NCBI GenBank assembly: GCA_963751345.1
Contig: CAVVUS010000033.1
Span: 1 to 64,000, forward strand
DNA from: an uncultured Chloroflexia bacterium
Lineage (GTDB): Bacteria; Chloroflexota; Anaerolineae; B4-G1; SLSP01
Direction of reading: 5' to 3'
DNA: 64,000 bases
Within the stretch, counting starts at the first letter, position 1; each line of letters starts with the position of its first letter. Below are positions 6,209 to 42,330 of this stretch, piece after piece. The translations under genes were made by a program, and so were the position numbers. The notes beneath the pieces were generated by a model. That model had not been told where the DNA came from. It saw only the letters and a list, made by a program, of their open reading frames with translations, and did no database searches.

Positions 6209-6224
6209 TTGATCCCTCGCTTTC

Positions 6225-7226: not shown

Positions 7227-7264
7227 AATTGGCCTCCGATTCCCTCTTGTGCGGTCTCTACGCG

Positions 7265-7324
7265 AGACCTTTGGGGTTTCCTTCTCTAGCAGTCGGCTAC
7301 TCAACAAGGAAACCCCAAAGGTCT
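7265..7324. repeat. AGACCTTTGGGGTTT palindromic element, copy 1
   Basis: agacctttggggtttcctt ... aaggaaaccccaaaggtct. Confidence 0.8.
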
Positions 7325-27797: not shown

Positions 27798-28090
27798 TCA
27801 CGGTGCCGGGATCGTCACGGTGATCATGAGTTCGCGGTCGCCGAGCCTACCGAGCACAGGTCGAGCAGGTAGTCCTGCGTCAGCAGTGGCACGCCGGTGA
27901 AACCGGTGGCGCCCGAGTAATGGCTCACGAGGACGCTGCCGTCGGCACCGTAGACGATCGGGACCACCTGGCGCAGATCGGGCGCGCCCTGGCGTTCGCG
28001 AGCCTGGTGAGTATCCCGGCGTCATTCGGGATTTCGGCGCGGTCCGCTATGTCACGCGGGAACCCGGGCGAATGCGTACGTATGAAGGGC
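27798..28090 (-). pseudogene. Decayed copy of the 3' end of the 40213-41766 lipoprotein gene
   Basis: 27798-27970 aligns by eye to 40213-40390 (same VYGADGSVL..GATGFTGV...LDL...VTIPAP-stop) with indels; no start or signal peptide. Confidence 0.75.
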
Positions 28091-28105
28091 TGCTCCGCTG
28101 CCACC

Positions 28106-28580
28106 CTAGGGATCGAAGTGAACGTCACCCTCGTACCAACAGTCGGGGCCCTCCGCGCCGAACCCGGGACCTCCCCAGGTTCCGCCGCCGTGAGCATTTG
28201 CCAGGTCACCGGTGCCGCTGAGAATCACCCACGTGCCGGCCCAGTCGCTATCCGCAGGCTTCTTGCCGATCAACTGCAGGACTAGCGTGCCCTCCCTGTC
28301 GTTCACCGTGCCTGTGAACTCACAGCGAAGCTGGACCGTCCAGAAGTCCTTGAACATGCCCACCGTGAACACCAGTCGCCCTCGCCGGCCATGTCTCCCT
28401 GCCAGATCTCGTGCTCCGTTGCTTCCATGAACGTGTTGGGGCCGGCCTCTCTCATACCGTTACGGCAAAGGTGTATTCGAGCGTGCCATCAACGTGCGTA
28501 GACCCCTTGGCATATACCGCCGTCGATGCCAACGGTAGCAGTGCGCACACTATGAGCAGCGTCAGTAGTTGCCTTTTCAT
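28106..28580 (-). CDS. Small secreted beta-barrel protein (DUF3224/AOC-like), frameshifted
   Basis: Signal peptide MKRQLLTLLIVCALLPLASTAVYA; GTWVILSGTGDLANAHGGG motif. Confidence 0.6.
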
Positions 28581-28729
28581 CCTGTCATCCCCTTTCATCA
28601 GCAAAGCTGAGTTGTGCCCCCCTTGGGGCTGTTGGATTCGGCCATCTGTCATCGGGTCCCGATCGTTCATTCGTTTGCCTGCTGTCGGCAGCACCTCCGT
28701 TCTCTATGCCTGCAAACCGGCCCACCAGA

Positions 28730-31134
28730 CTACTCCCTGACGACGATGGGCAAGAAGACGTACCGGGTCGAGCTGAGTCGGAGGATGAGCGGATAGTCCT
28801 TGACGAGCAGATCCCGGATAACCAGGTTCCCGCCCACGGTGGCGGTCACGATCTGCTGCTGATAGCTGTACAGGGCGTCGATCGCCGTCACCTTGCGATC
28901 TACGATGCCTGGGAGCACAAGGGTGGTCGTGATTCCGCGGTCGTCATCGGTCGCCACGCCGTCGGTCCACAGGGCGACGAGGCGATCCTCGCCTGAGAGC
29001 GCGAAGGTGTAGCTGACGACATTCGTCACGGTTGTTTGGGCCTGGACCGGAAACGACGCCGCCCGCGCACCCGCGAAGACCGTCGCCAGGTTGCTGGCCA
29101 TGGCGCTGTTCTCCCGACGCCTGCCGCTGACGCCCCCGATGTGCACCGCCACATCCCTGCCCAGGTGCATAATGATGCCTCGGCCCAGGTACTTCGCGGC
29201 AGCGGTATTGGTCTGCATATGTGCCGCGGCACCGCAGTCGCCGCTGTCCGGGCTGCACCAGCCGATCTCATCGCCTCGGAACTCTCCCTGGAAACCGTGG
29301 GCAGTTGCCGTTGCCATGATGAGCTGCAGGATCCCCGGATAGGCGTAGTAATAGTCGCGCTCGTCCTCGTAGTCAGGCGACGTCCCGTACAATGGGTGCC
29401 AGGACACCCCGTCTACCAGGGGCATGACATCCGACTGGACCAACTGGGCCAGGTAGTATTGCCCATACGGCTCGCGCAGGATCACCCCTCCGATCACGAT
29501 CCTCGCCTCAGGAAACTCATCCCGGATCACCGGCACCACACGGTGCACCAGCGCCACGTAGTCCAGGGGCCTGATATGCTGGATAGGACTCCCGGCGTCG
29601 GGCTCGTTCCAGAGCTCATAATAGGCTACGCGGTCCTTGAAGTGCCCCACGATGAACCGCACATACGTCAGGTAGCGCTGGATCTCCTCCTCGGTGGTGA
29701 AGCGTGACTCCAGCCCGGACCATCCTTCGGGGTGGTTGGCCTTGTCCCAGAAGGTCAGGATGTAAGTGATCGTGATGCCGCTGTCTGCCAGGCCGGTCAC
29801 GAAGGCATCCTGTTCGGTCGAGATGCTGAGTTCCGGGCGAGTCCAGTCGATCGATGGCCAGTCTTCCACTTCGTTGAAGGAGAAGCGCACCATCTTAAGC
29901 CCCTTGACCCCCTGTGGATTGCACGCGAAATCGCCGTCCATCTCGGGGCTCGCCAGGTAGCCCCAGAAGGTGCCCAGGTGATTGTCCAACAGCGCCGACG
30001 AGCACTGGGCCCGAAACGGTGAGATCGGCAGGCTGTTTCCCCTCTGTACAACCAGGGCTCTGGACGAGATCGATGTCGGTACCGAGAATTCGCTGGTATT
30101 GCCGCCGGGGTCGGTAGCTGTCGCTGTCACGTTTGGGCCGGTGAAAGCCGAGCCCTTGGCGAAGGAGAAGACCCCCGTGCCATCGGCCACGGTCGAGCCT
30201 TCATAGACCGCTCCCTCGTCGTCATCGTCAGAGGTGATCTCGACCGTGCAGTTGGGGCAGGTGATACCCATCAGCGTTCCGGCGTGCAGGTCGAAGTCCA
30301 GGACCAGGGGCTCGGCCAACTCGGCGTTGCCGCCGTCCCACAGCCCAATGCCCCTGGCACCATTGTCGTGGAGGCTGTTCCGGGTCAGGGTGTTGTGCAG
30401 TGTATCGGGGTCCTGCACGACGATGCCATATCCACCGTTGTGGGCGATGACGTTGTCGGGACCGATAGTATTGTTGTGTGCACCCCCGGAGATCCAAACT
30501 CCGGTCTGATCGCCCAACGCTGCCGTACCCGTGGCGTCGGTGCCGATCAGGTTGCCCGTGACGACATTGAGCGAAGTGCCGCTCGTCGACAGATCGACAC
30601 CGACGCCGCTATGGGTAAAGAGGTTGCCCTCTCCAAGGGGGCCGGCGCCGACGTCGCGGTCGCCGCCGATCACGTTGGTCCGGGCCTCGCCGCTTATCGC
30701 AATCCCCGGTCCCGAGAAGTTGGCGAAGTGTATGCCGCGAATTACGTTGTCCTCGGAGCCCACGATCTGTATCCCGGCTTCCCAGTCGCCGACTAGTGCG
30801 TGCCGTCGATGACCACGCCGGCGCTGCTCGCGTCGAGGGTCATGTGGCTCACGTGGATGTGGGGTAGGGCGCTGGTCAACGTGATGGTCACCGGCGCGCC
30901 GGGGAGGAAGACGGCTGGGTCGAACGTGATGGTGTCGCCGTCCTGCACGTCGAGCAACGCTTGGCGCAGCGTGCCGGGGCCGCTGTCGGCGGCGCTGGTG
31001 ACGGTGAGGACCGTCGTTGGTGTCGCCAGCACCTGCGGCGCCTGGAGCGCGACCAGCGCTGCCAGGACGATCCAGCGGGCCGCGAATTGGACGACATTCC
31101 GCCTACGCTTGCTCCGTGACCGGGGTGCCTTCAT
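28730..31134 (-). CDS. Secreted parallel beta-helix plus clan GH-A (GH39/GH5-like) glycoside hydrolase with FLPIVVR tail (frameshift near 30795)
   Basis: Signal peptide; VTSAADSGPGTLRQAL, GNLIGTDATG, NVIAHNGGYGI, TATATDPGGNTSEFS; YELWNEPD acid/base, VSWHP, GDEIGW nucleophile; ATGA overlap with upstream gene. Confidence 0.8.
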
Positions 31135-32893
31135 CGCGTGCCTAGCACGGGGCGGACGGTGACTTCGGCCTGCCTCCGGGCCCACCGATGCCGTGCGTCC
31201 CATCCAAGAACAAGACCGACCAGTAGCGTGCCCACGCCGAAGGCCCACCTGCCACTCTCGACGGGCGCACCTGCGCGCTGCGGCGCATAGCCACCGGCAG
31301 CTGCGGTCGATTCTAGGGCTGTCAACCGGGTCTCCAGGTCGCTGAGCTGCCGGCTGAGGGTCTCAATCTGCGCCTGCTGGTCGAGGTCGCGCGTGGTGAG
31401 CTCCTGGACTGCCGCAAGCGCGACGCCGTTGGCGTCCAGGGCCGCGATGTGCCGGTCGTCCTCTCCCAGACCGAAGGCGGCATAGAAGTCCTGCGCCGTC
31501 GGGCCCATGTGGACGATGGCTGCATCCTGTGCGCTGTAGTTCCAGGTGGTGATGGGTACCCCGGCAAGCCGAGCGAGCACGTCCTGCCCATCCACGGGGA
31601 CGAAGTTCTCCTTCAACGCGCGGTCGGATGTATCGGTCCAAGCGCCGCCGGTGGAGAGATAGCCGCCCGTGGACGTATTTATGAAGCGGCCTGTTGGGAT
31701 CGTGGGCGATCCAGATGCGCCGAACCAGATGCCGCCCCCGGCTTTGACGCTGAAGGTATTGGTGGCTGGCGAGGTGGTCTGGCTGCTGAAACTGTCGGCC
31801 CACACGAACGCGCCCTCGTGGACCGCGTTCGCACCCCTCCCGCCGCGTAACTATAGTCGCCACTGGCAAAGTTATTCGTGCCCCCTGGTACGGTGGCCGC
31901 ATAGCCACCGGCGTTGTTCATATACCCCCCGCCGACACTTGAATCCGTTCCGGTAGCGCTGTTGTTGTTACCGCCACTCACAGTACCTGTATTGCCGGCT
32001 CGGTTGCCGACGCCTCCGCCGATCGTTGCTTCTAGGCCATCGGCAAGGTTACTGAGCCCTCCGCCCACGACGGACCACTCGCCGCTCGCCGTGTTCCGGC
32101 GCCCGCCGCCGACCGTACCACCGTCCGCCGTCACCTGGTTGGGAGATAGCATAGATCCGCCACCACTGATGGTGGCGCCTGCCGCGTCCGGGGCTACAGA
32201 GTTCGCAGCGTGGCCCCCGATCAGGTTCGGGCTGGTGGCGTTGGGCTCGAGGCGCAAGGCCGCGGTGCCGCTCACCGCCAGCGTCAGCGAGACGCCGTCC
32301 GTCGTGCCGAGGATGTGGGTGCCCGCGACCGTGCCGGCGTTGCCCGTGAGCGACCATGCGTCGCCTGACGCGGCAACTGCCGGGGTCCAGGCAGTGCCGT
32401 CCCACGTCAGAACCTGGCCGGCCACAGGTGGCGTCTCCGCCACCGGATACCCGCGGAGCGCGCCAGCCGTCTGGGCATAGAGGGCATAGGGGGTGGCCGT
32501 GAGTCGCTGGCGCCCCATATCGGTGAAGGTAGCGTCGGTCGAGCATCTGACGCGGACGCCAAGCCAGCGCGCGTCACCGTTGAAGACCTGGGCGCCGAAG
32601 TTGAGGTTGGCAAGGAACAGGCCGGCGGTGACGGGGACCGTGGTGGTGATGGCAATACTTACCTGGCTGCCCGCCGTGGCGTCATCGTAGAGGCGGAAGG
32701 CCATTCTGCAGTCGTCGGTGATCGGCTCGCCGTCGGATGCCAAGTGGCCCTGGTAGGTGAAGCCCGATCCTAAGTTCGCCAGCGGTGCGGCGAACCCTGA
32801 CGCCGTCGGTCCCTGCGCGTAGCTGAGGAGCATCGCGGGAACCAGCAAGCATATCAATGCGACTCTCCTCGTAGCTCGTGATGGTGTCACCAT
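31131..32893 (-). CDS. Secreted tail-fibre-like protein with Peptidase S74 autocleaving chaperone domain (frameshift near 31835)
   Basis: Signal peptide; FTYQGHL...FRLYD...ARWLGVRV..RQRLTATPYALYA N-domain; (T/V)xGGGxxNxA repeats; TSDRALKENF, HMGPTAQDFYAAFGLG, GVALAAVQEL coiled coil; C-terminal hydrophobic helix. Confidence 0.85.
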
Positions 32894-32974
32894 GGACTCC
32901 CTCCTGTCAGGTGTTGTGGGCGGAGGCCGAGAGAGACGTCCCATAGGTGTCTCTCTCTAGCGCACCGTTCCGGC

Positions 32975-34504
32975 TCATCTCCTTACGACCAGCGGTAGGA
33001 AGACCTGCGTCTCAGTCGTGATGCTGCTGCTGGTTGAGTAGTTGCCCGCGCGGTCGACCGCGCGGGCATAGACCGTGGTGGACTTGCTCGGCGTCCACGT
33101 GATCTCAGTGATGCTGTCGGTGGCGGGGTAGGTCGTGAAGGGCTCGAAGCCGGCGTCGTCACTGACCTCGATGGCGTCAACCCCGCTATTGTCGTCGCTG
33201 GTCGTCACCTCAATCGTGACTTCCTGGGCGGCCGCAGACTGGGCGCCCAGCGCCTTCCTCGAGATGATGAGCATCACGGGCGCGGATGGGGGTACCGGGT
33301 CGTAGATGATGTCGTCCTGCACAGGCCCGAACGGATCTCCGCCTGCGTCGCGGAACTTCGCGTAGACGATACGGGGGATGCGCAGGTCGCCGTAGGTCGT
33401 CATAACCCAATCGTCGTAGGTCATGTCAGGCACCACGGGGAGCCAGTCGGTCGAGCCGGCGCCGAAGGCCCCGTCGTTGCTGAACCTGACCTGGGTGATG
33501 GCGTCGTCGACGTTGGTGCTGTACTGCAGCGTGACCGTGGGAACGTTGGTGTAGACGGTGCCGTCGTTGATCGTCAGGCCGTAGCCTGGGTTGTAGGCCG
33601 AGCTAGCCTCCAACAGCGTCACGCGACCCAGCCCATCGTCGAGGGTGGCGGTGTTGACGATAGTGGTCCCGACCTGCAGGGCTGTGGTCGTCACCTCTAC
33701 GCTGAAGCGCAGGATGACCGGGGACCCCTTGACGACCTTGCCCGTCCAGTGAAGCGTGCCATCCGCGAGCGTCACCGGACCTCCGTCACTGGCCTGCGCT
33801 CCGCCCGCGTAGGTCGTGTGCAGCGGGATCGCGTCGCTCAGGCTCGCGGTAGCCGTGACAAGGGCACGGTTGTAGAGGACCAGCGTGTAGGTCACCGTAT
33901 CGCCTACATCGAAGGTGGCACGGTTCACCCACTTGCCCGACAGCGAGAGGTCGGGGAGCGGCAGGGTGCTCACCGCCACAGTGAAGGCTTGGAAGTCGGC
34001 GTGGCCGGCGGCGTCGCGCGCCCTCAGGACGACGTTGTGACTGCCGACGTCCGCCACGCTGGGAGTGCCACTCAACGTCGCCGTGCCGTCGCCGTGGTCG
34101 ACGAGTGATAGCCAACCCGGCTTGAGCGGCGCGGTGATTGTGAGAACGTCGCCGACATCGGGATCGACCGCGGTGATGGCATAGCTGTAGAGCATCCCGA
34201 CCTTGGCGACCGTATCAGGGGTGCTAATGATCTCAGGGGAACTGCCTGTGGGCAAGGGCGCCACCGCTGGTTGCCAGAAGCCGCCACTCAGAATATACAC
34301 GCCGCCATCGAGCGTGCCGGCAGCGGTCTGGCCGATCGTGCCGTCCATCTCATAGCCGCCTAACGCGGCGTGCCCGCCCCCGCCAGCCACAACGTAGCGA
34401 TCAAGGTTGAGCCCGTCGAGCGGGGCTGCCAGAGCGCCCATCGCGAGGAGGCCCACTATCGCCACACCGACTATCCATGCCACGCACCGGGTCCTCACCT
34501 GCAC
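32975..34504 (-). CDS. Secreted protein: Gly-rich N-domain, Ig/cadherin-like, DUF11 and Ig-like domains, FLPLVVRR tail
   Basis: Signal peptide; VVAGGGG..GGYEMDGTIGQ..GGVYILSGGFW; PGWLSLVDHGDGTATLSGTP; GDTVTYTLVLYN..LSDAIP; VDRAGN. Confidence 0.82.
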   Translation of the reverse strand: MQVRTRCVAWIVGVAIVGLLAMGALAAPLDGLNLDRYVVAGGGGHAALGGYEMDGTIGQTAAGTLDGGVYILSGGFWQPAVAPLPTGSSPEIISTPDTVAKVGMLYSYAITAVDPDVGDVLTITAPLKPGWLSLVDHGDGTATLSGTPSVADVGSHNVVLRARDAAGHADFQAFTVAVSTLPLPDLSLSGKWVNRATFDVGDTVTYTLVLYNRALVTATASLSDAIPLHTTYAGGAQASDGGPVTLADGTLHWTGKVVKGSPVILRFSVEVTTTALQVGTTIVNTATLDDGLGRVTLLEASSAYNPGYGLTINDGTVYTNVPTVTLQYSTNVDDAITQVRFSNDGAFGAGSTDWLPVVPDMTYDDWVMTTYGDLRIPRIVYAKFRDAGGDPFGPVQDDIIYDPVPPSAPVMLIISRKALGAQSAAAQEVTIEVTTSDDNSGVDAIEVSDDAGFEPFTTYPATDSITEITWTPSKSTTVYARAVDRAGNYSTSSSITTETQVFLPLVVRR

Positions 34505-34536
34505 CTCCCACGCTCAGGCGACTTTGCTTCGCGTGT

Positions 34537-34639
34537 AGCGTACTTCTCAACCGTGTGAACAGCGTGTGATGTCGTGTCAAGTGCAGTGCGACAGGAGGTC
34601 CACCGATCACACGCTATTCACACGGTCGGTCGGTATGCT
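34537..34639. promoter_or_regulatory. Divergent promoter pair with SARP-type direct repeats
   Basis: Minus: TCACACG (34569-63), TCACACG (34558-52), 9 bp, TACGCT (34542-37). Plus: TCACACG (34607-13), TCACACG (34618-24), 9 bp, TATGCT (34634-39). Confidence 0.75.
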
Positions 34640-34697
34640 CTAGGACAAGAGATTCGGCCCAGGTGTAGCGCAGGATCGGTGGTTCCCAGATAGACCT

Positions 34698-34910
34698 ATG
34701 ATGAGGGAGTCGTGTTGCAAGTATATGTCGTACCTCTTGCGGCTTTGGCTGGTGCGGACAGAGTTGGGCCTATCCTGGCGGGCGTCACTTGAGGACACCC
34801 GTACCAGAGAACGCCATGGGTTCACCAGCCTTGATGACCTACTCGGCTATCTGCGCGGCCTGGCCGAACCGCCCGAAGCCTGTCCTAGCAGAGAGGAGAA
34901 CGAGCGATGA
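34698..34910 (+). CDS. Small hypothetical protein (SYLLRLW...WRASLE...GFxSL type)
   Basis: 70-aa ORF, first gene after the rightward promoter, ATGA-coupled to the next gene. Confidence 0.72.
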   Translation: MMRESCCKYMSYLLRLWLVRTELGLSWRASLEDTRTRERHGFTSLDDLLGYLRGLAEPPEACPSREENER

Positions 34911-35422
34911 AGAAGGGAGTCTTTCGGTTGTGGCCTTTGGTGTTGGTGGCTTTGGCCTTGCTCCTGGCGAGTTGCGCGACGGCGCAGCTCAAAGCTCAGG
35001 CCGCCCAGGAAGCTGCCAACAAGGAAGTGGTGCAGTCCTTCCTCGGCATGTTCATGTCGGGGAATTGGGGTGACTTCGACCAGGTGATCGCCGCTGACTG
35101 CGTCCTGCACGAGCCCGGTGGCACCGACCTCGTGGGGCTGGACCAGATGAAGGCGGCCTGGGTCGAAGCCTACACGCCGCTCACGGACCTCAACGTCACA
35201 TCGGTTGCCGAGGCCGGCGAGGGCGAGTACCTGATGGACTTCTACGTCATGGACGCCACGTACGAAGGGGAGTACATGGGCCAGCAGTTTTCGGGTGTAC
35301 CGGTGAGCTTTTTTCAGGCGGAGACGATGCACATCGTCGATGGCAAGATCGTCGAGTGGTGGGTGGAGTTCGACCGGCAGCGGTTGGCGGAAGAACTAGG
35401 GTTCGCGCTGCAGCTGCAGTGA
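34907..35422 (+). CDS. SnoaL/NTF2-like (ester cyclase) lipoprotein
   Basis: Lipobox LASC; ANKEVV..F, IAADCVLH, AGEGE, DGKIVEWW. Confidence 0.82.
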   Translation: MKKGVFRLWPLVLVALALLLASCATAQLKAQAAQEAANKEVVQSFLGMFMSGNWGDFDQVIAADCVLHEPGGTDLVGLDQMKAAWVEAYTPLTDLNVTSVAEAGEGEYLMDFYVMDATYEGEYMGQQFSGVPVSFFQAETMHIVDGKIVEWWVEFDRQRLAEELGFALQLQ

Positions 35423-35532
35423 GCCGTGTGGCAGCGTGCGGCGGGGCGATGCATCTGACGTTGCCCGGCCGCCCGTTTGGGTCTATCATCGATATACCGT
35501 CAGCAAGGTCTTCCAATGGAGGGTTTGGTCCA

Positions 35533-35964
35533 ATGAACACACCGGATCAGGTAGCAAGCAACAAGCAGGTCCTGCAGGAGTTCCTGGAGCTGTTCATGTC
35601 AGGAAGGTGGGACGAGTTCGACCGCGTCATCCACCCGGACTGCGTGATGCACTACTCGGGCGACGTTGACGAGGTGGGGCTGGAGCAGATCATGGAGGGC
35701 TGGCGCCACTTCTATGGCAGCATCAGCGACATACAGGCCGGCACCGACGCCATCGCCAGTGAGGGCGACCTCCTGATGGCGCTCTATACGATCGGGGGTA
35801 TCTACGAGGGCACCTTCGAGGGCTTGGCCGTCGGCCCGCTGCCGGTGAAGTACCGCCAAGCCGAGACAATGCGCATCGCGGATGGCCGGATCGTTGAGTG
35901 GTGGGTGGTCTACGATGAGGTTGTGCTGGCACAGCAACTGGGGTTCGCGCTGACCGCAGCTTAG
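35533..35964 (+). CDS. SnoaL/NTF2-like (ester cyclase) protein, cytoplasmic paralog
   Basis: SNKQVL..FMSGRWDEFD, HPDCVMH, ASEGD, DGRIVEWW, AQQLGF. Confidence 0.82.
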   Translation: MNTPDQVASNKQVLQEFLELFMSGRWDEFDRVIHPDCVMHYSGDVDEVGLEQIMEGWRHFYGSISDIQAGTDAIASEGDLLMALYTIGGIYEGTFEGLAVGPLPVKYRQAETMRIADGRIVEWWVVYDEVVLAQQLGFALTAA

Positions 35965-36020
35965 CAGGCCATAAGGGGCCTTGCTGGGCGGAGGGCCCGC
36001 TAGCAAGACAGGGCGGAGCG

Positions 36021-39000
36021 CTACGTGAGGAGCGCGTTGGCCCGGGCGACGAACTGCTCGCGCAAGTCCTCGACCGGCACGGTCTCGGCTAGCTCGAGTA
36101 TGTGCGCGCGGGCCTGGGCCAGTTCCTTCTCACTCTCCGACTGTCGGTCCAACGCACGGTAGACGCGGGCGAGGCTCGCGTGCAGGCGCCATAGCGGCAG
36201 CCGCGCCGGGTAGTCCTGAGCGTGGGCCAACGCAGTCTCCAGCAAGAGGAGGGCCTCCGTCGTGCGCCCCATCGCCGCGAGTATCTCGGCTCGAAGTTGC
36301 CATAGGAAGGGGATGACCGGTCGGGGCTCCGGTGACGGCGCTGTGTGAGGTGCCGAGTCGATCAGGCGGTCCACGATGTCAAGCGCCTTCGCCGGGTCGC
36401 CCTCCATTAGCGCCACTTCTGCGCGCCGGGCCCAGCATGTGCGCCGGTGGATGGTGTCCATCGGCGCCGGCGGCGCCAGGACGCCATCGAGGCACGATCG
36501 AGCCAGATCCACGTCGCCACAACTGCAGCAAACCGCTGCCAACGTGCCCGTGGCATAGTGAAACCAATGGCGTGACTGGAGCTTCTCAGCCAGGGCCAGG
36601 GCCTCCTCGAGCTCCGGTCGCGCCAACTCGGGGGCAAGAAGCTCGGTGTAGATCCCCCCAAGAATCGCGTGGGCGCCGGCGATCCATTCGAGATGCCCGA
36701 TGGATGTGGCCACAATCCGAGCGCGCTCGATATTGTTCAGGGCCAGGCCGAACTGCCCCTGCGCCAGGTCGTGCAGGCTGAGGCTCCACAGGGCCCAGCC
36801 CGCTGCAGCGGGCGCGTTTGTCTCCTGGGCGATCCGCAGCGCCTCCTCAAGATCACGACGGCTGACGACAGTCCCGCGTGGCGGAATGAGTGTCGTCGTG
36901 AAGGTCTGCGCGGTTGCGGCTAGGGCCCGTCCGATGAGGCTGCTGCAGAGGCCGAGCAAGTCCCCGAGTTCACGGAATGCCGCGATGGCGCGGTCGTAGT
37001 AAGTGATGCTGGCGCAGAGGTCTCCGTGAATCTGGGTCGCGAGCCCGAGGTCGTCGAGCGTGTGCGCTACCGCCTCCTGGCTGCCCAGCGGCTCGAGGAT
37101 GGCCAGTGCCTGCCGGTGATAGTCAATCGCCTGCGGGAGGTGTTCTTGGTTCAGCCACCAGTTACCCACCCGATTGAGCGTCGTTGCCAGGACCGCAGGG
37201 TCGCCGATCTGCTGTGCCAGCTCGAGGGCCTGATCGATTAACTCGCGGCTGCGACCGTAGTCGCGCAAGGCCCACAGCCCGACCAGGTCGAGCAGGGCGC
37301 GCCACGCAGTCCGCTGGTTCCCGGCTGCCCGGCCGATCGCGAGACATGTCTCGAAGTCGCCTCGCGCGCGCTCGAACTCCCCCAGGGCCGCGCTGCCCAG
37401 ACCGCGCCCCCGGTGCAGTTCGGCGCGCCGGACCGTGTCGGATCCCACACGGTCAGCGAGTTCGATGGCCTGGGTATACAGAGCAATCGCGGCCTGGTGG
37501 GCGTGGGCGCGTTCAGCATTGGCTGCGGCGACGATGCTGTAGCGGAAAGCCCGCTGGTCATCGGCGGCGCCCAGGAAGTGGCGGGCCAGCTGCACGGCGA
37601 CCTGGTCCGGATCCTCGCTGTGCAGAACCAGGAGCGCCTCTGCGACCTGCCGGTGCAGCAGTCGACGCTCGCCGCTACCTAACCGGCGATACAGATGGTT
37701 CTGCACGAGAATGTGGCTGAACTGGTAGTGAACGGTCCAGCCCGAGCCCGTCTGCCCCTCGGACTGCAGTCGCACAAGATGGTAGAGCCGCTCGAGCCGT
37801 CCCAGTGCCCGCAGGCATGATCTTTCGGGCATCGGCATCGCGGCGGCAACCAGTTGTGCGTCGAAGGAGTCCCCCACGATGCCGGCCACGCTCAGGATGT
37901 CCAGAAGTAGGGGCTCAAGACGGACGATGCGTTCCTCAATCACGGCCTCCACCCTAGCGGGAAGCCGGTCCCAGTCGAGACCGGGCGTCTCGACCCAGGC
38001 TCGGTCTCCGCCAGACCGGCGCACCAGATCGCCGCGCTCCTGCATCGCCCGCAGTAATTCGATGGTGAAGAGGGGATGTCCGGCGGTGTGAAGGTAGAGG
38101 GCATCACGGAAGCCTGCATCGAGGTGGTTGGGCTCGGTGTCGAGCAGGGCGTCTACGAAGCGGCGCCCCTCCTCATGGTCCCATGCGTCGAGATCTACCC
38201 AGACGTCGCCGTAGAGGCGTTGCAGCTCGTGGAGCGGCCTCTCCAGCGGGTGCCGCTCGCCGGTGGGCCCGGGGACGAGTTCCTCAGGCCGGTACGCACA
38301 CACGATCATGATGCGATGCTGACCGCCTGCAAGCCGCCTGCCAAGGTGAAAGAGCAGTCCAATCGAGGCCCTGTCGGCCCAATGGACGTCATCCAGGATG
38401 ATGAGGAGCGGCTGCTGATCTGCGAGCGTGCACAGCACGTCGGTGACTTGACCGAAGAGGAAAGTCTGGTCCACGGGAACGCTGCCGTCTTGCGCCTGAC
38501 CCGTCAGGGCCCGGATGCGCCCCAACCAGTCATCGCGGCCGGGCACCGCGCTGGCGGCCCGAGAAAGCAGGCTCTCGCCGGCCAGGATGGTCCCGACAAG
38601 CGAAGGTCCCCGTGTCACCAGTGCCGATAGCGCCGACGGCAGCGCACTCCAGAGACGTCGAGCGCCGTCAGGACCGATCCATCCTCGCGACCCGTGCGGC
38701 TCGACATCGCCCGTCAGCATCTCCAGCACATCGCGGAAGGGGAGGTAGGGATCCCCGACCCCGGCATAGGCTGTGCAGCTTCCGCGTGCTACCAGCAGAT
38801 CGGCATGCGCCCCTAGCCCCTGCCGCGCGACCTCATTCAGGAGGGCCGTCTTGCCCTGGCCGGCGGCGCCGACGACGAAGGCGAGCCGACACGCACCCCG
38901 AGCCGCCTCCTCAAGTAGGGCGAGGAGTCTGCTGATCTCACGTTCCCGACCCACGAAGACGGAATCCGGTCCGGGCGACGAGGCCTCGTCCGGGTGAGAT

Positions 39001-39848
39001 GGTCTCCCGGAGTAAGGGGGATCGAGCCGCGCCCACGCAGGGCTAGCCAATGCCCCATCTCGGATTCGTTGCCAGAGCTGCGTCGTCTCCATCTCCGGCT
39101 CGACGCCGAGTTGTTCGGCCAGCAGCGTACGGCAAGTCTCGTATTGGGCGAGCGCCGCGCTGCGCCGGCCGTTCAGGGCCAGAAGCCTCATGATCTGCCG
39201 CTGCGCCTGCTCATCGCACGGCGCAAGTTCGACCTGCCGCCAGGCGTAGGCCAAGGCGCGCCCCCACTGACCACGTCGCTCGTGGCGTTCGGTGAGCTGG
39301 CGGAGAAGCGCGATGGCCTCACGCTCCAGCCGTTCGCGCGTGATCGTGGCCCACTCCGAGAAGACTGCACTGTCATCGATCGAGACGTCTGACAGGAACG
39401 GGCCCCCGCAGAGGGACGCGGCTGCCTCGAGCTCATCCGTCGACGGTCGGACCGGCCCCGCAGCGCCGCCGGGGTTTCTGCTGCGTAGCAGGTCTTCGAA
39501 CGCCCGGACATCCACCCAGACGTCGGCATCACGGTTGAGCTGTAGCGTCTGGCGGGTTGTCAGGAGGTAGGGGATCGCCGTTGCATCGACTGTGCTAGTG
39601 AGGGAGGTCACGTCACCGATCGCGGTTCGCAGGCTGGCCAACGTGTGGCGCAGGTTAGCGCGGGCCGAGCCTTCGGGCCGCTCGGGCCACAGCATCTCGG
39701 CCAGCGCGTCGCGACGCTGGGGCCGGTCGACCTCGACGGCCAGGAAGGCCAACAACGCGCGTACCTTCTCTGTCTCGAAGTGGGTGATCGGCCGATCATC
39801 CAGCGTTACCTGCATCGGGCCCAACACCTTTATGGAAAGACGGGCCAT
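36021..39848 (-). CDS. AfsR/SARP-family regulator (wHTH-BTAD-AAA/STAND ATPase-TPR)
   Basis: LSIKVLGP, RALLAFLAV..RDALAEMLWP..ANLRHTLASLR; BTAD (EQAQRQIMRL..ALAQYETC..LGVEP); FVGRERE, GAAGQGKT, ILDDVHWAD, GHPLF; TPR-like C-terminal half. Confidence 0.92.
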   Translation of the reverse strand: MARLSIKVLGPMQVTLDDRPITHFETEKVRALLAFLAVEVDRPQRRDALAEMLWPERPEGSARANLRHTLASLRTAIGDVTSLTSTVDATAIPYLLTTRQTLQLNRDADVWVDVRAFEDLLRSRNPGGAAGPVRPSTDELEAAASLCGGPFLSDVSIDDSAVFSEWATITRERLEREAIALLRQLTERHERRGQWGRALAYAWRQVELAPCDEQAQRQIMRLLALNGRRSAALAQYETCRTLLAEQLGVEPEMETTQLWQRIRDGALASPAWARLDPPYSGRPSHPDEASSPGPDSVFVGREREISRLLALLEEAARGACRLAFVVGAAGQGKTALLNEVARQGLGAHADLLVARGSCTAYAGVGDPYLPFRDVLEMLTGDVEPHGSRGWIGPDGARRLWSALPSALSALVTRGPSLVGTILAGESLLSRAASAVPGRDDWLGRIRALTGQAQDGSVPVDQTFLFGQVTDVLCTLADQQPLLIILDDVHWADRASIGLLFHLGRRLAGGQHRIMIVCAYRPEELVPGPTGERHPLERPLHELQRLYGDVWVDLDAWDHEEGRRFVDALLDTEPNHLDAGFRDALYLHTAGHPLFTIELLRAMQERGDLVRRSGGDRAWVETPGLDWDRLPARVEAVIEERIVRLEPLLLDILSVAGIVGDSFDAQLVAAAMPMPERSCLRALGRLERLYHLVRLQSEGQTGSGWTVHYQFSHILVQNHLYRRLGSGERRLLHRQVAEALLVLHSEDPDQVAVQLARHFLGAADDQRAFRYSIVAAANAERAHAHQAAIALYTQAIELADRVGSDTVRRAELHRGRGLGSAALGEFERARGDFETCLAIGRAAGNQRTAWRALLDLVGLWALRDYGRSRELIDQALELAQQIGDPAVLATTLNRVGNWWLNQEHLPQAIDYHRQALAILEPLGSQEAVAHTLDDLGLATQIHGDLCASITYYDRAIAAFRELGDLLGLCSSLIGRALAATAQTFTTTLIPPRGTVVSRRDLEEALRIAQETNAPAAAGWALWSLSLHDLAQGQFGLALNNIERARIVATSIGHLEWIAGAHAILGGIYTELLAPELARPELEEALALAEKLQSRHWFHYATGTLAAVCCSCGDVDLARSCLDGVLAPPAPMDTIHRRTCWARRAEVALMEGDPAKALDIVDRLIDSAPHTAPSPEPRPVIPFLWQLRAEILAAMGRTTEALLLLETALAHAQDYPARLPLWRLHASLARVYRALDRQSESEKELAQARAHILELAETVPVEDLREQFVARANALLT

Positions 39849-40212: not shown

Positions 40213-41766
40213 TCAGGGTGCCGGGATCGTCACGGTGACCATGACGTTCGCGGTCGCCGAACCCACCGAGCGCAGGTCGAGCAGGTAATCTTCCGTCAGC
40301 GGGAGCACGCCGGTGAAGCCGGTGGCGCCCGCGTGGTCGCTCAGGAGGACGCTACCGTCGGCACCGTAGACGATCAGGACCACCTGGCCCTGGCTCGTCG
40401 CCGTCTCCACGGTCATCGTCTGTCCGGCGAGCGCGTGGACCACGAAGTGTCCGGTGGTCGACGGCGGTATGCTGGCTTGCCCCTGCCCGCTCACTGCGCC
40501 CGGCGCAAAGGTGATCCGCTGCGGAATGATCACCGTCATCGTGTAGTCAACGGCCAGGCTCCCCGACGTGACCATCAATGTGTAGTCCTGGGTGGTCGGG
40601 ACGACGCCGCGGAAGAACGCCGGACCCGGCGGCATCACGACCTGCCCGTTCGCCCCCACGACCGCCAGTGTCAGGCCCGTGGTCGGGAAGAAGTCGACTT
40701 CCATCAACTGCCCCGCGGAGACGCCGACGAGATAGCGGTTGGTGCTATTGGCGTCGATGTGCCCAGGGAATTGCGCCTGTGTCTCGCCGGCAGCGAAGAG
40801 GATGCGCGTAGTAGCGCCCGGTTCAGGCGTGGGCGTGGGCGTGGCGGTGGTGCTGCCCATGGGCGGGACCGAGACGTTGAGCGTGTAGCTGGCGGGCCCG
40901 CCCCCAACCGCCCGGACGTCGATCAGATAGTCCTGCGTCGTGGGCAGGTTGCCGGAGAACGTGGGGCTCCCGGCGTGATCGGTCTGGAGCACGGTGCCGT
41001 CGGCACCGTAGACGATCAGGATCACCTGACCCTCGGTGGCCACGGCATCCAGGGCCAACGTCTGCCCTCCCAGCGCCCGAATCACGAAGGCCAGGGAGCT
41101 GTTTGCAGCCTGGGTCTCCGGGATCTGGATCGTGCTGGTGCCTGGCGCGAAGGTGATCCGTATGGGGATCATCAAGCTCAAGGTGAAATCTGTGGCTGCG
41201 CCGCTGTTGGTGATCGCGAGGGTGTAGTCCTGTGTCGTGGGCACCGTCCCACGGAAGAAGGGCTGTCCCTGGATCTTGATAATGACGTTGTCCGCGCCGA
41301 CTATTGAGAGGCTCAGGGTGCCCTGGCCCACGGGGATCGTGTCGACACTCACCTCCATGAGCTGGTCGCTGGTTACGCCGAAGACGTAGCGAAGGGTCTC
41401 CCCGGCGCCGATGTGCCCCTGGATCGTGGCGTAAGTGGTCCCGGCGGCAAAGGCAATCCGCTCAGCCATGGATGTGGGCGGGGTCGCCGTGGATCCCGGG
41501 GCTGCCGTCGGCGGAACGGCGGTGGGTGTCGATTCTGCCATCGGGGTGCTCGTGGCCGCTGCGGGCGTCTCGATAGGCGAGGTCGCCGGTGTGGCGGTCG
41601 CTCTGTCCCCGGCGGCAGAGCTCGATGCCGTCGGACTGGACGTGGGCAGCGGCGGAGCAGCCGACCGGATCAGCGCGCAGGATGCCGTTGAGACCATCGT
41701 CAAGATGATGAGCGCCACGGCGCCCAGTTGCATCAGTTGGTGTGGTCCTGTCATTCGCTTCTTCAT
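40213..41766 (-). CDS. Lipoprotein with four PPC-like beta-sandwich repeats (2x2 duplication)
   Basis: TASC lipobox-like, PT-rich linker, four RIxF(A/P)xG-initiated domains with PTTQDY motifs. Confidence 0.75.
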   Translation of the reverse strand: MKKRMTGPHQLMQLGAVALIILTMVSTASCALIRSAAPPLPTSSPTASSSAAGDRATATPATSPIETPAAATSTPMAESTPTAVPPTAAPGSTATPPTSMAERIAFAAGTTYATIQGHIGAGETLRYVFGVTSDQLMEVSVDTIPVGQGTLSLSIVGADNVIIKIQGQPFFRGTVPTTQDYTLAITNSGAATDFTLSLMIPIRITFAPGTSTIQIPETQAANSSLAFVIRALGGQTLALDAVATEGQVILIVYGADGTVLQTDHAGSPTFSGNLPTTQDYLIDVRAVGGGPASYTLNVSVPPMGSTTATPTPTPEPGATTRILFAAGETQAQFPGHIDANSTNRYLVGVSAGQLMEVDFFPTTGLTLAVVGANGQVVMPPGPAFFRGVVPTTQDYTLMVTSGSLAVDYTMTVIIPQRITFAPGAVSGQGQASIPPSTTGHFVVHALAGQTMTVETATSQGQVVLIVYGADGSVLLSDHAGATGFTGVLPLTEDYLLDLRSVGSATANVMVTVTIPAP

Positions 41767-41889
41767 TTGCTCTGTACCCTTCCTCTCTGCATTCGTATCT
41801 GTTGGGTTTGTCCTCCATCTTATACCATATCCGTTGACTTTGGCGATGGCTTGGGTTGGATCGGGCGGTGGTGGGTTTGGGCGGTGGGA

Positions 41890-42330
41890 GTATAGTGGTG
41901 CGGCCGAGATCGACATCACGCCCTGTGTGGGCACGACCTGACGGGATACGTGGCACGGCTGGGTCCCTCTGTGGGTGTACGCGACCGGCTAAACGCGCGG
42001 GCGCTAGTCATGGACGATGGCACGACGCGGGCGGTGATCGTCGTCTGTGATCTGGTGGGGCTGGACGGGGTGATTAGTGCAGCTGCCCGGCGCCGCGATC
42101 GGTGCGGTGCCTGGGTCCGTCATGGTGGCCTGCACGCACACGCACTTCGGCCCGGCTACGATCATTCTGCATGCGGGTACGATCCCACGGCCTTCGGCGG
42201 GAGGGACCGCGCGTGGTTCCTTCAGGCGCTCAACGCCGGGGGGATCCCGTGCATGGAGGGTTACGTGCCGCTCTATGAGCTGCCCGCGATCCGCGGCGGC
42301 AATCATCTTCGAAGCATTCATCTTTCTTGA
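41890..42330 (+). pseudogene. Chimeric remnant: ceramidase-like N-terminus joined to DegT/DnrJ aminotransferase-like fragment
   Basis: GAAEIDITP..GY.AR..SVGVRDRLNARALV..DL...ACTHTHFGP, then YDPTAFGGRDRAWFLQALNAGGIPCMEGYVPLY. Confidence 0.55.

Follow-up and report, generated by a model that had tools for sequence, protein, structure and literature searches.

In this work, an accessory chromosomal locus of an uncultured Anaerolineales (Chloroflexota) bacterium with a 5.4-Mb genome was analysed in a stretch of 64,000 nucleotides, referred to below as the window. We hypothesize that the locus makes and regulates a phage-independent surface fibre that would be capped and anchored by a partner protein with a Gly-rich (GG) module, and we give this full mechanism a probability of about 0.6. 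The left operon (minus strand) encodes, in order, the GG-module protein Ig509, an S74 fibre, a beta-helix/PslG-like GH39 enzyme and a DUF3224 protein. On the plus strand, the right operon encodes the small protein mini70 and two SnoaL proteins, and a SARP-NOD-TPR regulator adjoins it. Signal-peptide-like N-terminal segments were read by eye from the sequence in all four left-arm products. Every element listed in an earlier note on this DNA is present where that note had placed it, and the domains were recovered by Pfam/NCBIfam profile search. The idea of a fixed eight-gene system did not hold, since the fibre occurs in 2/21 same-genus genomes (8/41 relatives), enzyme orthologues adjoin a fibre in 0/7 loci, and a SnoaL gene stands beside a mini gene in 1/18 related loci. 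The whole locus is not a conserved unit.

The fibre and its GG partner

The fibre gene (31131..32944, minus) matches PF13884 / Peptidase_S74 with an E-value of 1.6e-11 and 44.7 bits against a cut-off of 22. Its product begins with a signal peptide and a conserved N-terminal domain with an FTYQG.L strand, continues with GGxxNxASG repeats that match UspA1 (3pr7, E 1.9e-15) and the S74 chaperone, and ends with a coiled coil, a C-terminal hydrophobic helix (approximately 31206-31247) and a basic tail; its profile also matches the ICA domain of MYRF (7dc3, E 5.3e-4). The predicted autocleavage serine is the S of SDRALK (codon 31626..31628, minus), with the lysine five residues on, and this S60/K65 dyad is invariant in 7/7 aligned fibres within the SDxxxK motif that the available sections of PMC10769870 describe for S74 chaperones. 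The hydrophobic segment with basic tail was found at the C-terminus of 29 of the 42 Chloroflexota S74 ORFs, compared with 3 of the 56 from other or unknown phyla. Together with the absence of phage genes nearby, the invariant dyad bears out the proposal of a non-phage, self-cleaving fibre, the cleavage itself being predicted from sequence. Judged in the same way, the fibre is a membrane-tethered, Sec-exported and predicted self-cleaving protein.

Ig509 (32975..34504, minus; Pfam and NCBIfam matches), the product of the first left-operon gene, consists of a signal peptide, the GG module (residues 27-95, 34220-34426; alignments A2 and A5), He_PIG, DUF11 and Ig-like / OmpL47-like domains, and a YLP-box tail (32978-33004). 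The GG module comprises about 60 residues, and its family numbers 12,960 representative proteins at E<=1e-3. Directly 3' of the S74 ORF, a GG gene is present in 25/42 Chloroflexota cases and in 8/56 other cases. In the related loci L010-L016, a GG gene of about 95 aa follows the fibre or fibre-like gene in five of the seven (called ORFs in L011, L013, L014 and L016; found by tblastn in L015, whose contig is shared with L067). Its product has a signal peptide, the GG module and a YLPLVLR tail, and in L011, L014 and L016 the stop codon of the fibre-type gene overlaps its start. In a phylum-wide sample with 1.5-kb flanks, only 6 of 29 GG loci, the best-scoring non-self ones, have an S74 end directly upstream; GG genes also stand 3' of fibre-like ORFs without an S74 end (L020, L046). 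In the present locus the GG protein is enlarged and encoded upstream of the fibre, whereas in the relatives it is encoded downstream.

The earlier note had called for a multimer prediction, and in this prediction the GG module caps the N-terminal strands of the fibre trimer. The complex gave ipSAE values of 0.86, 0.84 and 0.81 in three runs, while the best of three controls reached 0.01; this score is the model's own confidence, obtained outside the calibration set-up. The ipSAE mark was reached by 116/157 solved complexes and 2/215 mismatched pairs, counts that apply only roughly to the present prediction, since it relied on own alignments and a 3+1 chain arrangement. The partner had a pLDDT of at least 75, at least 85% of the contacts were common to the runs, and the predicted contacts are invariant residues of both families, the site on the fibre being its invariant N-terminal strands. 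The role of fibre adaptor that had been proposed for the Gly-rich protein thus gains from both the conserved gene pairing and the complex prediction (ipSAE 0.84 against 0.01 for the best control). Furthermore, the C-terminal end of GG proteins changes with phylum, from a YLP tail to a membrane helix with RRKR, a T9SS-like domain or an FYRL-ending domain, as would be expected of an anchoring handle. On the basis of these models, the GG partner is predicted to cap the fibre N-terminal strands and to anchor the fibre.

The C-terminal tail that the earlier note had described as an LPL tail is indeed present, but it is not new, as it corresponds to the YLP-box putative sorting motif of NCBIfam. The Ig509 tail scores 15.0 bits with NF050076 (cut-off 15) and 13.4 bits with NF053834 (cut-off 10); the tail of a C25 peptidase also passes both cut-offs, and that of the small GG protein of L011 passes too. 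Genome-wide, 23 of 81 occurrences of the motif lie at most four residues from an ORF end, compared with about two expected. The enzyme tail (VFLPIVVRE) was not matched by the YLP-box models, and the YLP-box name was not found in the literature searched. NF050076 and NF053834 are ultrashort CTERM models whose sorting function is only "putative" in NCBIfam; they name a motif only, and the NCBIfam records are silent on a mechanism, on a sorting enzyme and on any connection with fibres.

The enzyme, the DUF3224 protein and gene intactness

The third left-operon gene (28730..31134, minus) shares the ATGA at 31131-31134 with the fibre gene, as TGA stop of the fibre and ATG start of the enzyme. It encodes a secreted enzyme of about 790 aa with a beta-helix (Beta_helix, 32.9 bits), an Ig-like domain, a PslG/GH39-like domain with the WNEP acid/base motif, and the YLP-like tail. 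Its sequence matches 5jvk (GH39) with an E-value of 4.7e-6, and the best Foldseek match of its AF2 model (pLDDT 82.6) is PslG (4zn2, E 3.3e-16, TM 0.64-0.68), in agreement with the proposed glycan hydrolase of clan GH-A. By its model the enzyme is PslG/GH39-like, a predicted sugar-polymer cutter. Intact orthologues of 785-932 aa exist. The last gene of the operon (28106..28580, minus) encodes a small secreted DUF3224 protein, of which the C-terminal piece matches PF11528 (27 bits against a cut-off of 25); its signal peptide, middle piece and C-terminal piece lie in three frames.

One-base gaps split three left-arm genes, with one frameshift in the fibre (31834-31840, a G run), one in the enzyme (near 30795-30801) and two in the DUF3224 gene. 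These frameshifts are not mentioned in the earlier note. Independent Logan metagenome contigs carry one extra base at three of the four break sites, namely behind 28373 and 28456 in the DUF3224 gene and behind 30801 in the enzyme, where the extra G is carried by two runs. Because these contigs restore three sites and other genes of the window, encoding FtsH, an MFS transporter and a permease, are split as well, the breaks are most probably consensus errors of the assembly. The fibre site has no independent contig coverage, and therefore the break in the fibre gene could be genuine in this strain; in relatives the gene is a single intact ORF of 683-914 aa.

Control of the two operons

Between the operons lies a bidirectional control region (34537..34639) with two mirror-image SARP-type promoters. 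The heptamer repeat TCACACG-N4-TCACACG, its heptamers 11 nt apart, occurs at 34607-34624 (plus) and at 34569-34552 (minus). A TAnnCT -10-like hexamer (TATGCT rightward, TACGCT leftward) stands 9 nt behind each double heptamer, and both operators lie inside a 34-nt inverted repeat. A sigma-70 consensus promoter was not found in the control region. No further copy of the exact double heptamer exists in the genome. The SARP type that had been claimed for the mirror-image promoters is consistent with this 11-bp phasing, since the geometry rule given in the available text of PMC10936776 sets two direct repeats at a distance of one helical turn, where they overlap the -35 region. The SARP-type regulator (36021..39848, minus; 1275 aa) has wHTH, BTAD, AAA_16/NOD and TPR parts, with scores of 96 bits for BTAD, 80.8 for AAA_16 and 64.8 for TPR_12. 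Its wHTH reaches 17.3 bits with Trans_reg_C, below the cut-off of 26.2, and the AfsR model matches it partially. It is encoded at one of 11 BTAD loci of the genome and is convergent with the right operon, while a divergent arrangement is usual. The adjacent regulator is taken as the cognate one because of its proximity alone.

The mini70 gene (34698..34910, plus; alignments A3 and A7) encodes the motif SYLLRLW..WR..F..L..L, and its product has an AF2 model of beta-beta-beta-alpha fold with a pLDDT of 84; no family matched it in Pfam or NCBIfam searches. The mini family is multi-copy in Chloroflexota, being found in 35/41 relatives with up to 14 genes per genome. A BTAD regulator adjoins the mini gene in 11/18 related loci, in line with the suggested link between the mini-protein and SARP-STAND regulators. 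An exact 7-mer repeat at 11-nt spacing was found in 9/20 mini upstream regions and in 53/5000 random genome windows, and other spacings upstream of mini genes in 0-2/20. A mini gene lies directly 5' of a fibre-type gene in L047, L049, L050, L053, L070, L113 and L139, and in L010 a divergent BTAD regulator comes first, followed by mini, the gene of a YLP-tailed FG-GAP protein, the fibre gene and finally a GG gene. The mini70 stop codon overlaps the start of SnoaL-like protein 1 (34907..35422, plus; PF07366, 67 bits against a cut-off of 28.4), which has a lipoprotein-type signal peptide (..LLASC). In SnoaL-like protein 2 (35356..35964, plus; PF07366, 79 bits against the same cut-off) the domain begins at ORF residue 71, and translation probably begins further downstream, at 35449 or 35533; a signal peptide was not seen in its sequence. 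Nothing was found in support of the view that SnoaL pockets handle the signal, and the SnoaL proteins appear to be another secreted cargo encoded by a mini operon.

Proposed mechanism and alternative readings

We propose that a cue triggers the NOD/TPR part of the regulator, which would then bind both afs-box-like operators as side-by-side dimers, so that both operons are switched on. The fibre chain would be exported by Sec and remain tethered to the membrane through its C-terminal helix, while the S74 chaperone would trimerise three chains, after which the Ser-Lys dyad would cut the fibre free. Three Y.L.G-type pseudo-repeats of one GG module could then cap the three invariant FTYQG.L strands in the N-terminal domain of the fibre trimer, and the C-terminal YLP-box of the GG protein, as a putative sorting signal, would hold the fibre on the envelope. 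The enzyme, with its YLP-like tail, may be deployed alongside and cut exopolysaccharide of the cell's own matrix or of a target.

It would be most surprising if the fibre gene were a prophage tail-fibre remnant without a cellular role. Its S74 piece does match tail-fibre PHROGs (phrog_1980, E 2.9e-8), but it is the only match to phage families of known function among 20 ORFs tested at 15.7-47 kb, the other 19 having no match to a phage structural or replication family; moreover, a signal peptide and a C-terminal membrane helix are part of the fibre, whose conserved cellular partner gene carries a cellular sorting tail. Weak PHROG matches of unknown function were also seen for an MFS-like fragment (26305-26655) and for the regulator. 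Decay of the left arm, in which all four frameshifts would be real and the fibre, enzyme and DUF3224 protein no longer made, is very improbable. The four breaks do fall within 3.9 kb, while the 3.8-kb regulator and 1.5-kb Ig509 genes are intact. However, near-identical contigs from independent runs hold the missing base at three of the sites, the split genes elsewhere in the window are of housekeeping type, and an added base is needed at all four breaks, the direction for fibre and enzyme having been worked out by hand.

The two arms might also be unrelated neighbours, with the SARP regulator serving only the mini-SnoaL operon or another target and the fibre operon obeying a different factor. 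In relatives, the majority of mini/SARP pairs drive secreted cargo of other kinds (hydrolases, Kelch/FG-GAP proteins), the fibre cassettes of L011 adjoin a histidine kinase and a LuxR-type response regulator, and the genome holds 11 BTAD paralogues. We nevertheless regard this as improbable, given the identical double heptamer at the same distance from the -10-like hexamer on both sides and nowhere else in 5.4 Mb, and given mini genes directly 5' of fibre-type genes in at least seven other loci. It is somewhat less improbable, though still unlikely, that the GG protein is not an anchor: it could be an assembly cap or chaperone, for example one that shields the sticky N-terminal strands until export has taken place, or the outermost tip of a fibre attached in some other way. 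The model places the GG module at the N-terminal end of the fibre without showing whether that end points towards the cell, disorder is predicted for the small GG protein by itself (Atlas model, pLDDT 0.33), as for many chaperone-like partners, and the distant likeness of the module is to PamT, a predicted tip pilin. On the other hand, sorting or anchoring C-termini that depend on phylum fit an envelope handle better than a transient chaperone, and the available discussion of PMC10769870 argues that the N-terminal domain of the Bdellovibrio MAT fibres is cell-proximal. Anchoring by the GG protein is thus the reading that we retain.

Comparison with known systems

PslG, the Pseudomonas aeruginosa GH39 exopolysaccharide hydrolase (4zn2, 5bx9), is the best structural match for the C-terminal 443 residues of the enzyme, with which it shares a TIM barrel and a beta-sandwich. 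The identity is only 15-16%, and PslG has neither the N-terminal beta-helix nor the Ig-like domain and YLP-like tail. In the eukaryotic protein MYRF, an S74-type intramolecular chaperone (ICA) stands right before a membrane helix, and self-cleavage frees the N-terminal part, which is a cytosolic transcription factor. The fibre likewise has an S74-type chaperone followed by a membrane helix, whereas the released part is predicted to be an extracellular fibre. The GG module aligns weakly with model positions 7-83 of PamT (NF058579), described in the accessible part of PMC13278184 as a predicted tip pilin of the CPR Pam pilus, with 13-34 bits against a cut-off of 240, and the module lacks the Ig-like pilin domain that PamT has. 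According to the same part of this preprint, a tail-fibre-like gene co-localises with pam operons.

The Streptomyces AfsR-AfsS system, as far as described in the available text of PMC10936776, also has a large SARP regulator with NOD and TPR domains, an operator whose two direct repeats are spaced by one helical turn and overlap the -35 region, and a small ORF that adjoins the regulator gene and is its direct target (here predicted). Compared with that description, mini70 has a predicted fold and a motif of its own, the operator is doubled in mirror orientation for two operons, the cargo consists of secreted surface proteins and not of antibiotic genes, and the module is multi-copy in Chloroflexota.

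Another close system is the S74 subgroup, including Bd3182, of the mosaic adhesive trimer (MAT) fibres of Bdellovibrio bacteriovorus (PMC10769870, available sections). Both are chromosomal, signal-peptide-bearing trimeric fibres (here predicted from genes), each with a conserved beta-rich N-terminal domain that immediately adjoins the signal peptide and with an S74 chaperone at the C-terminal end that carries the SDxxxK motif. S74 and non-S74 versions of MAT share the N-terminal domain, and GG genes follow both types of fibre here too. According to that paper, it is unknown which surface element the N-terminal domain of MAT binds. The present host, a member of the Chloroflexota, is not a predator, unlike Bdellovibrio. 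In contrast to MAT as presented in those sections, the fibre has a coiled coil and a membrane helix behind the chaperone, a shaft of UspA1-like head repeats, and a dedicated partner gene that combines the GG module with a YLP-box.

Gene Layout and Frame Breaks of the Locus

The genome holding the window comprises 5.4 Mb in 49 contigs with ~63% G+C, and the window lies on contig C33. The left arm (28106-34504, minus strand) consists of four genes, the first transcribed being Ig509 (32975-34504), which encodes the Gly-rich/Ig protein. It is followed by the S74 fibre gene (31131-32944), found in two frames in the assembly, by the gene of a beta-helix enzyme (28730-31134), also in two frames, with its ATG overlapping the fibre TGA, and by the gene of a DUF3224 protein (28106-28580) in three frames. 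On the plus strand, the right arm comprises the gene of a 70-aa mini-protein (34698-34910), the stop of which overlaps the start of SnoaL1 (34907-35422), and then SnoaL2, which extends to 35964. The two SnoaL proteins matched the PF07366 profile with 67 and 79.2 bits (cut-off 28.4). Convergent to the right arm is a gene (36021-39848) for a 1275-aa regulator containing BTAD, AAA_16, and TPR domains. All Pfam and NCBIfam calls matched the domain labels given in the earlier note from sequence alone. Just beyond the regulator, a 573-aa ORF (40213-41934, minus strand) shows good codon bias and has no Pfam or PHROG family.

The frame break of the fibre gene lies in a G run at 31834-31840, and that of the enzyme gene near 30795-30801. 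Programmed frameshifting was considered for the four breaks of the left arm and was ruled out for two reasons. In contigs from four independent metagenome runs over 28000-35000, one extra base was observed behind 28373 (two runs), 28456 (one run), and 30801 (two runs), coinciding exactly with both DUF3224 sites and the enzyme site, and one of these contigs is otherwise identical to the window. Moreover, the same kind of split affects unrelated genes elsewhere in the window, namely those of FtsH (21376-23104), an MFS transporter (25584-26655), an ABC permease (5998-7307), and a GNAT protein (13546-14530). Thus, the two DUF3224 breaks and the enzyme break are deletions in the window consensus and not gene features. 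The fibre break had no cover in the four runs, so the confirmed sites are three of the four; a single added G there would give one fibre ORF of ~600 aa. In relatives, the fibre is a single ORF of 683-914 aa, in which the motif ..YS.AAG..A.A...G.FVW.DS.. is continuous; in the window fibre it is cut between the two frames. Since many genes outside the locus are also split between frames, the assembly has frequent 1-base errors, and independent reads are required before any gene of this genome is called a "pseudogene". In three runs, contigs connect 28844 directly with 34308 and leave out 5463 nt, one side of the joint having just 21 letters; this joint is probably DNA of other organisms sharing a short stretch.

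The S74 Fibre

The fibre is composed of a signal peptide, a domain of ~110 residues, GGxxNxASG repeats, a Peptidase_S74 domain, a coiled coil, a hydrophobic helix, and a basic tail, in this order. The N-terminal domain is conserved in 17 fibres (alignment A6) and includes an invariant F-T-Y-Q-G-x-L strand. The Peptidase_S74 family PF13884 was matched with 44.7 bits (cut-off 22), and the SDRALK of the window fits the SDxxxK motif given for S74 chaperones (PMC10769870); S60 and K65 of this Ser-Lys dyad are invariant in all seven aligned fibres. Self-cleavage of the fibre after trimerisation is predicted from the S74 domain. The C-terminal profile also matches the ICA domain of MYRF (E 5.3e-4), in which this domain is followed by a membrane helix. 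Among 101 S74 ORFs surveyed in 79 loci of named genomes (the best 80 of at least 612 matches in a locus search with the 5-row alignment A4), with phylum labels hand-coded from record titles, the hydrophobic segment with a basic tail occurred in 29 of the 42 assessable Chloroflexota ORFs versus 3 of the 56 from other or unlabelled phyla. Tandem arrays of two to four S74 fibre genes occur in some genomes (L128, L121, L129, L139). The genome of the window yielded no S74 fibre other than this one. Among the literature matches listed, none combined S74 or intramolecular-chaperone work with Chloroflexota.

Two other origins of the fibre were weighed. The GGxxNxASG repeats matched the head of UspA1, a trimeric adhesin (3pr7, E 1.9e-15), which would fit a trimeric autotransporter adhesin of the YadA/UspA1 type. 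This reading was rejected because Pfam detected no autotransporter beta-barrel anchor domain in the fibre; the C-terminus consists of S74, the coiled coil, and one helix, and the head repeats alone match. A prophage remnant was also rejected as a reading of the fibre, since among 20 ORFs between 15.7 and 47 kb the S74 piece alone matched phage families of known function, and the non-phage nature claimed earlier for the locus stands.

The GG Module and Its Predicted Complex with the Fibre

Behind the fibre gene of related genomes stands a gene of ~95 codons, the start of which often overlaps the fibre stop; it encodes a signal peptide, a Gly-rich stretch of ~60 residues (the GG module), and the tail YLPLVLRNx. 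The consensus of the module is GGG..Y.L.G..GQ..AG...Y.L.GGFW. Residues 27-95 of Ig509 are a GG module with 30-39% identity to that of the relatives, and they are followed by He_PIG, DUF11, and Ig-like domains and then by a tail of the YLPLVLRNx kind. In the same survey of 101 ORFs, 25 of the 42 Chloroflexota S74 ORFs, as against 8 of the 56 others, had a GG gene immediately after them. Among the cultivable Chloroflexota, fibre-GG pairs are present in Herpetosiphon and Chloroflexus. The Gly-rich adaptor proposed in the earlier note is therefore a real family, and the neighbourhood conservation expected there holds for the fibre-GG pair, although the full gene set is unconserved. In a phylum-wide sample, the module was present in 29 of 301 genomes and 16 of 172 genera. 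An S74 end lay upstream of GG in only 6 of the 29 best-scoring non-self loci, which were fetched with 1.5 kb of flank each; at others, GG was located behind fibre-like ORFs with different ends (L020, L046) or behind other beta-rich proteins. A second small GG gene of the window's genome (102 aa, with a YLP tail) is found on contig C4 (1547-1855, plus strand).

In an exhaustive profile search, a threshold of E ≤ 1e-3 yielded 12,960 representative proteins and one of E ≤ 1e-10 yielded 4,550, mostly of 90-130 aa. No Pfam family exists for the module, and the Atlas clusters are annotated as "hypothetical protein", with Chloroflexota as the commonest source. Outside this phylum, the N-terminal part of GG is kept and the C-terminal end varies. 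As judged by eye from the C-termini, without a family scan, the ends include a membrane helix with RRKR (L121), a T9SS-type domain (L141), a domain ending in ..FYRL (L108, L111, L130, L137), and FN3-like or dockerin-like pieces. The PamT model (NF058579) gave 13-34 bits over its first ~80 positions only, and with the equivalog cut-off at 240 bits the GG proteins fall outside PamT.

The multimer prediction suggested in the earlier note, a fibre trimer with its adaptor, was carried out with three copies of the fibre N-terminal region (residues 45-262, A6) and one GG module (Ig509 27-95, A5). It passed, with ipSAE values of 0.86, 0.84, and 0.81 in three runs, while the best of three controls reached 0.01. 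The pLDDT of the partner was at least 75, and at least 85% of the contacts were common to the runs. Among solved complexes, 116 of 157 attain the mark of the tool, and among mismatched pairs 2 of 215, a calibration that is rough here owing to our own alignments and the 3+1 chains. In the model, each of the three fibre copies is contacted by the single GG chain, at fibre residues 18-28, where the invariant FTYQG.L strand lies. Contacts are made by GG residues 30-80, the tightest by 52-58 and 72-77, including the invariant G, Q, F, and W. For the small GG protein by itself, the Atlas predicts disorder (pLDDT 0.33). The prediction supports, at the level of a model, a GG module that would cap the N-terminal end of the fibre.

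The YLP-Box Tail

The C-terminal "LPL tail" described in the earlier note is a real motif, but it is not new, being already known in NCBIfam as the YLP-box. Two models, NF050076 ("sort_motif_YLP") and NF053834 ("ultrashort_CTERM"), both bear the name "YLP-box putative sorting motif". The tail of Ig509 passed both, with 15.0 (cut-off 15) and 13.4 (cut-off 10), as did the C25 peptidase at 15711-19271 and the small GG protein of the related locus L011. For the tail of the beta-helix enzyme, VFLPIVVRE, no match to a YLP-box model was reported. Genome-wide, 23 of 81 occurrences of the motif lie at most 4 residues from an ORF end, compared with ~2 expected, and the carriers of the tail are secreted hydrolases and adhesins. 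In a relative of the same genus, a beta-helix protein behind the fibre-GG pair has a "choice-of-anchor Q" domain before its YLP tail. Neither "YLP-box" nor "ultrashort CTERM" was found as a name among the papers listed in a literature search, and the motif letters led to unrelated peptides only. The C25 peptidase belongs to a giant secreted Peptidase_C25/CARDB/Big_7 protein (15711-20670, minus strand) with a YLP-box end passing both models; it is encoded by two overlapping ORFs, probably through another frameshift. An Agd3-like polysaccharide deacetylase (57102-58415, plus strand) ends in ..IYLPLAMRLAP, a YLP-like tail missed by the NCBIfam models.

The Beta-Helix Enzyme

The last 443 residues of the enzyme were modelled with 8 sequences at a pLDDT of 82.6. 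The best Foldseek matches were to PslG of Pseudomonas aeruginosa (4zn2, 5bx9, 9g17; E ~3e-16, TM 0.63-0.68), followed by the GH39 enzyme 5jvk, also found by phmmer (E 4.7e-6) and known as GH39wh2 (PMC6933502). By fold match, the enzyme has the (beta/alpha)8 barrel and C-terminal beta-sandwich of GH-A enzymes, and WNEPD in its sequence fits the NEP acid/base motif. No Pfam GH family matched the enzyme; its placement in GH39 rather than in a neighbouring GH-A family is therefore probable but not proven. The glycan hydrolase suggested earlier is thus retained as a predicted assignment. Orthologues were found at seven loci (L147-L153) in seven other genomes of the order, with lengths of 746-932 aa, the last of these ORFs being cut by a contig end. 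Most have a signal-peptide-like N-terminus and five of the seven a YLP-like tail. None of the seven has an S74, GG, or mini gene beside it within 1.5-kb flanks, and the eight genes, read in the earlier note as one system, form a modular locus and not a fixed unit. Other YLP-tailed beta-helix proteins were located behind fibre-GG pairs at L014 and L015/L067 and, at L013, between the fibre and GG genes. Thus, the combination of a fibre with a tailed beta-helix enzyme recurs loosely, whereas the link of this particular enzyme does not.

The Control Region, the Regulator, and the Mini-Protein

The spacer between the two arms is 193 nt long and contains a 34-nt inverted repeat. On either arm, two TCACACG heptamers 11 nt apart are separated by 9 nt from a hexamer, TATGCT in the rightward and TACGCT in the leftward direction. 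Nowhere else in the 5.4-Mb genome is the exact double heptamer present; with 543 single heptamers on the two strands together, ~0.03 double pairs would be expected. According to PMC10936776, SARPs target direct repeats spaced by 11 or 22 bp, and the -10 element lies ~8 bp from the 3' repeat. Both arms fit this geometry, so the mirror-image SARP-type promoters noticed earlier are upheld as a putative operator. No sigma-70 consensus promoter was found by a scan of the control region, which is expected for activator-dependent promoters and hence is not evidence. The regulator matched BTAD with 96 bits (cut-off 22.1) and, in its NOD/sensor part, AAA_16 with 80.8 and TPR_12 with 64.8 bits; Trans_reg_C, at 17.3 bits, stayed below its cut-off of 26.2.

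The mini-protein is a member of a family that 35 of 41 relatives carry, in up to 14 copies each, and for which neither Pfam nor NCBIfam has an entry. It was modelled as beta-beta-beta-alpha (pLDDT 84). Foldseek detected no PDB structure similar to this model at E ≤ 0.001; PUR-alpha and monellin, at E ~0.4, came nearest. At 18 non-self mini loci, a BTAD regulator was directly beside the gene in 11; one more had a wHTH alone, in a gene cut by the locus end, and two had a TPR/HTH_11 regulator. Upstream of the mini genes, an exact 7-mer repeat at 11-nt spacing with a -10-like hexamer was observed in 9 of 20 regions, including that of the window, as against 0-2 of 20 at any other spacing in the range 7-16, and 53 of 5000 windows drawn at random from the genome; the repeat sequences vary between loci. 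Given the BTAD adjacency and these repeats, the mini gene behaves as a standard first target of SARP-STAND regulators in the order. The gene behind it encodes varied secreted proteins, such as abhydrolases, Kelch, FG-GAP, beta-helix, and ChW proteins and, at one of the related mini loci, SnoaL. The SnoaL proteins, proposed earlier to handle the signal, are without support in that role. The mini gene stands directly before a gene with the fibre N-terminal domain at seven loci (L047, L049, L050, L053, L070, L113, L139), and at L010 the order is divergent BTAD regulator, mini, YLP-tailed FG-GAP protein, fibre, and GG gene. On the other hand, the regulator of the window is convergent and not divergent, the genome has 11 BTAD loci, and the fibre cassettes of L011 adjoin a histidine kinase and a LuxR-type regulator rather than a SARP; these observations count against a simple SARP picture.

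Further mini genes were noted in the course of the analysis. A second SARP/mini pair of the window's genome, on contig C21, has the divergent arrangement typical of such pairs (BTAD 104344-104817, minus; mini 105381-105536, plus). In the SFVLRIWWE subtype (L047, L049, and L062, from G027, G031, and G026), the operator core (A/G)AGACAC is nearly common, at 11-nt spacing. Minis of this subtype precede fibre-type genes at L047, L049, L050, and L053 and an FG-GAP gene at L062; the regulator adjacent at L049 and L062 is of the TPR plus HTH_11/DUF1670 type and not BTAD. Mini arrays also occur, with three copies in 4.5 kb (G021 C11, 54226-58703) and three in 11 kb (G002 C2, 673868-684756).

Proposed Function and Comparison with Known Systems

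The locus, which is real and cellular, is probably functional, and its best reading is that of a single cargo set under a SARP/mini switch. The membrane-tethered fibre would trimerise and then cut itself free, and the GG-module protein would cap its N-terminal end, with the YLP-box as a handle. The PslG-like enzyme, with its similar tail, would be a further cargo, and the DUF3224 protein and a SnoaL lipoprotein would be two small secreted members of the set. We infer binding, cleavage, anchoring, and activation by the window regulator from conservation, one passed complex prediction, and promoter geometry.

We hypothesize, with a probability of about 0.35 for the joint reading, that GG is the missing docking piece of MAT-type fibres generally, attached to a phylum-specific handle, that the YLP-box anchors, and that the SARP/mini pair is an AfsR-AfsS-like switch. 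It would mean that a chain of ~60 residues with threefold pseudo-symmetry folds on three invariant N-terminal strands and leads to a single C-terminal handle, the device differing by phylum: the YLP-box in Chloroflexota, a T9SS domain, a membrane helix, or the pilin-like domain of PamT in CPR. The YLP-box would then be a working envelope-anchoring signal, and SARP/mini pairs would choose the surface equipment that a Chloroflexota cell puts out. A very large unannotated family, predicted to cap a conserved N-terminal domain, provides a concrete candidate for the fibre holder and ties the fibres to an uncharacterised C-terminal sorting tag of Chloroflexota. Fibre anchoring, the role of the YLP-box, and the reason for a membrane-tethered chaperone become testable with two or three recombinant proteins. 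Moreover, the mini-protein/SARP pairing of the Chloroflexota, which are abundant and poorly studied, supplies many natural operator-regulator pairs.

Phage-like S74 fibres that bacteria put to their own use have been described recently in Bdellovibrio, where their attachment to the cell was stated to be unknown (PMC10769870). The MAT-type fibres have a signal peptide and then a conserved beta-rich N-terminal domain common to their S74 and non-S74 members; the conserved N-terminal domain of the window fibre is a possible counterpart. The YadA/UspA1 adhesins have head repeats in common with the fibre, but their C-terminal beta-barrel translocator anchor is absent from it. For the GG module, the sole named likeness, sub-threshold, is PamT, a predicted tip pilin whose operon co-localises with a tail-fibre-like gene (PMC13278184). 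The closest parallel to the regulator-mini pairing is AfsR with its small neighbour afsS, and the pairing would extend AfsR-type regulation beyond actinomycete antibiotics to secreted surface proteins.
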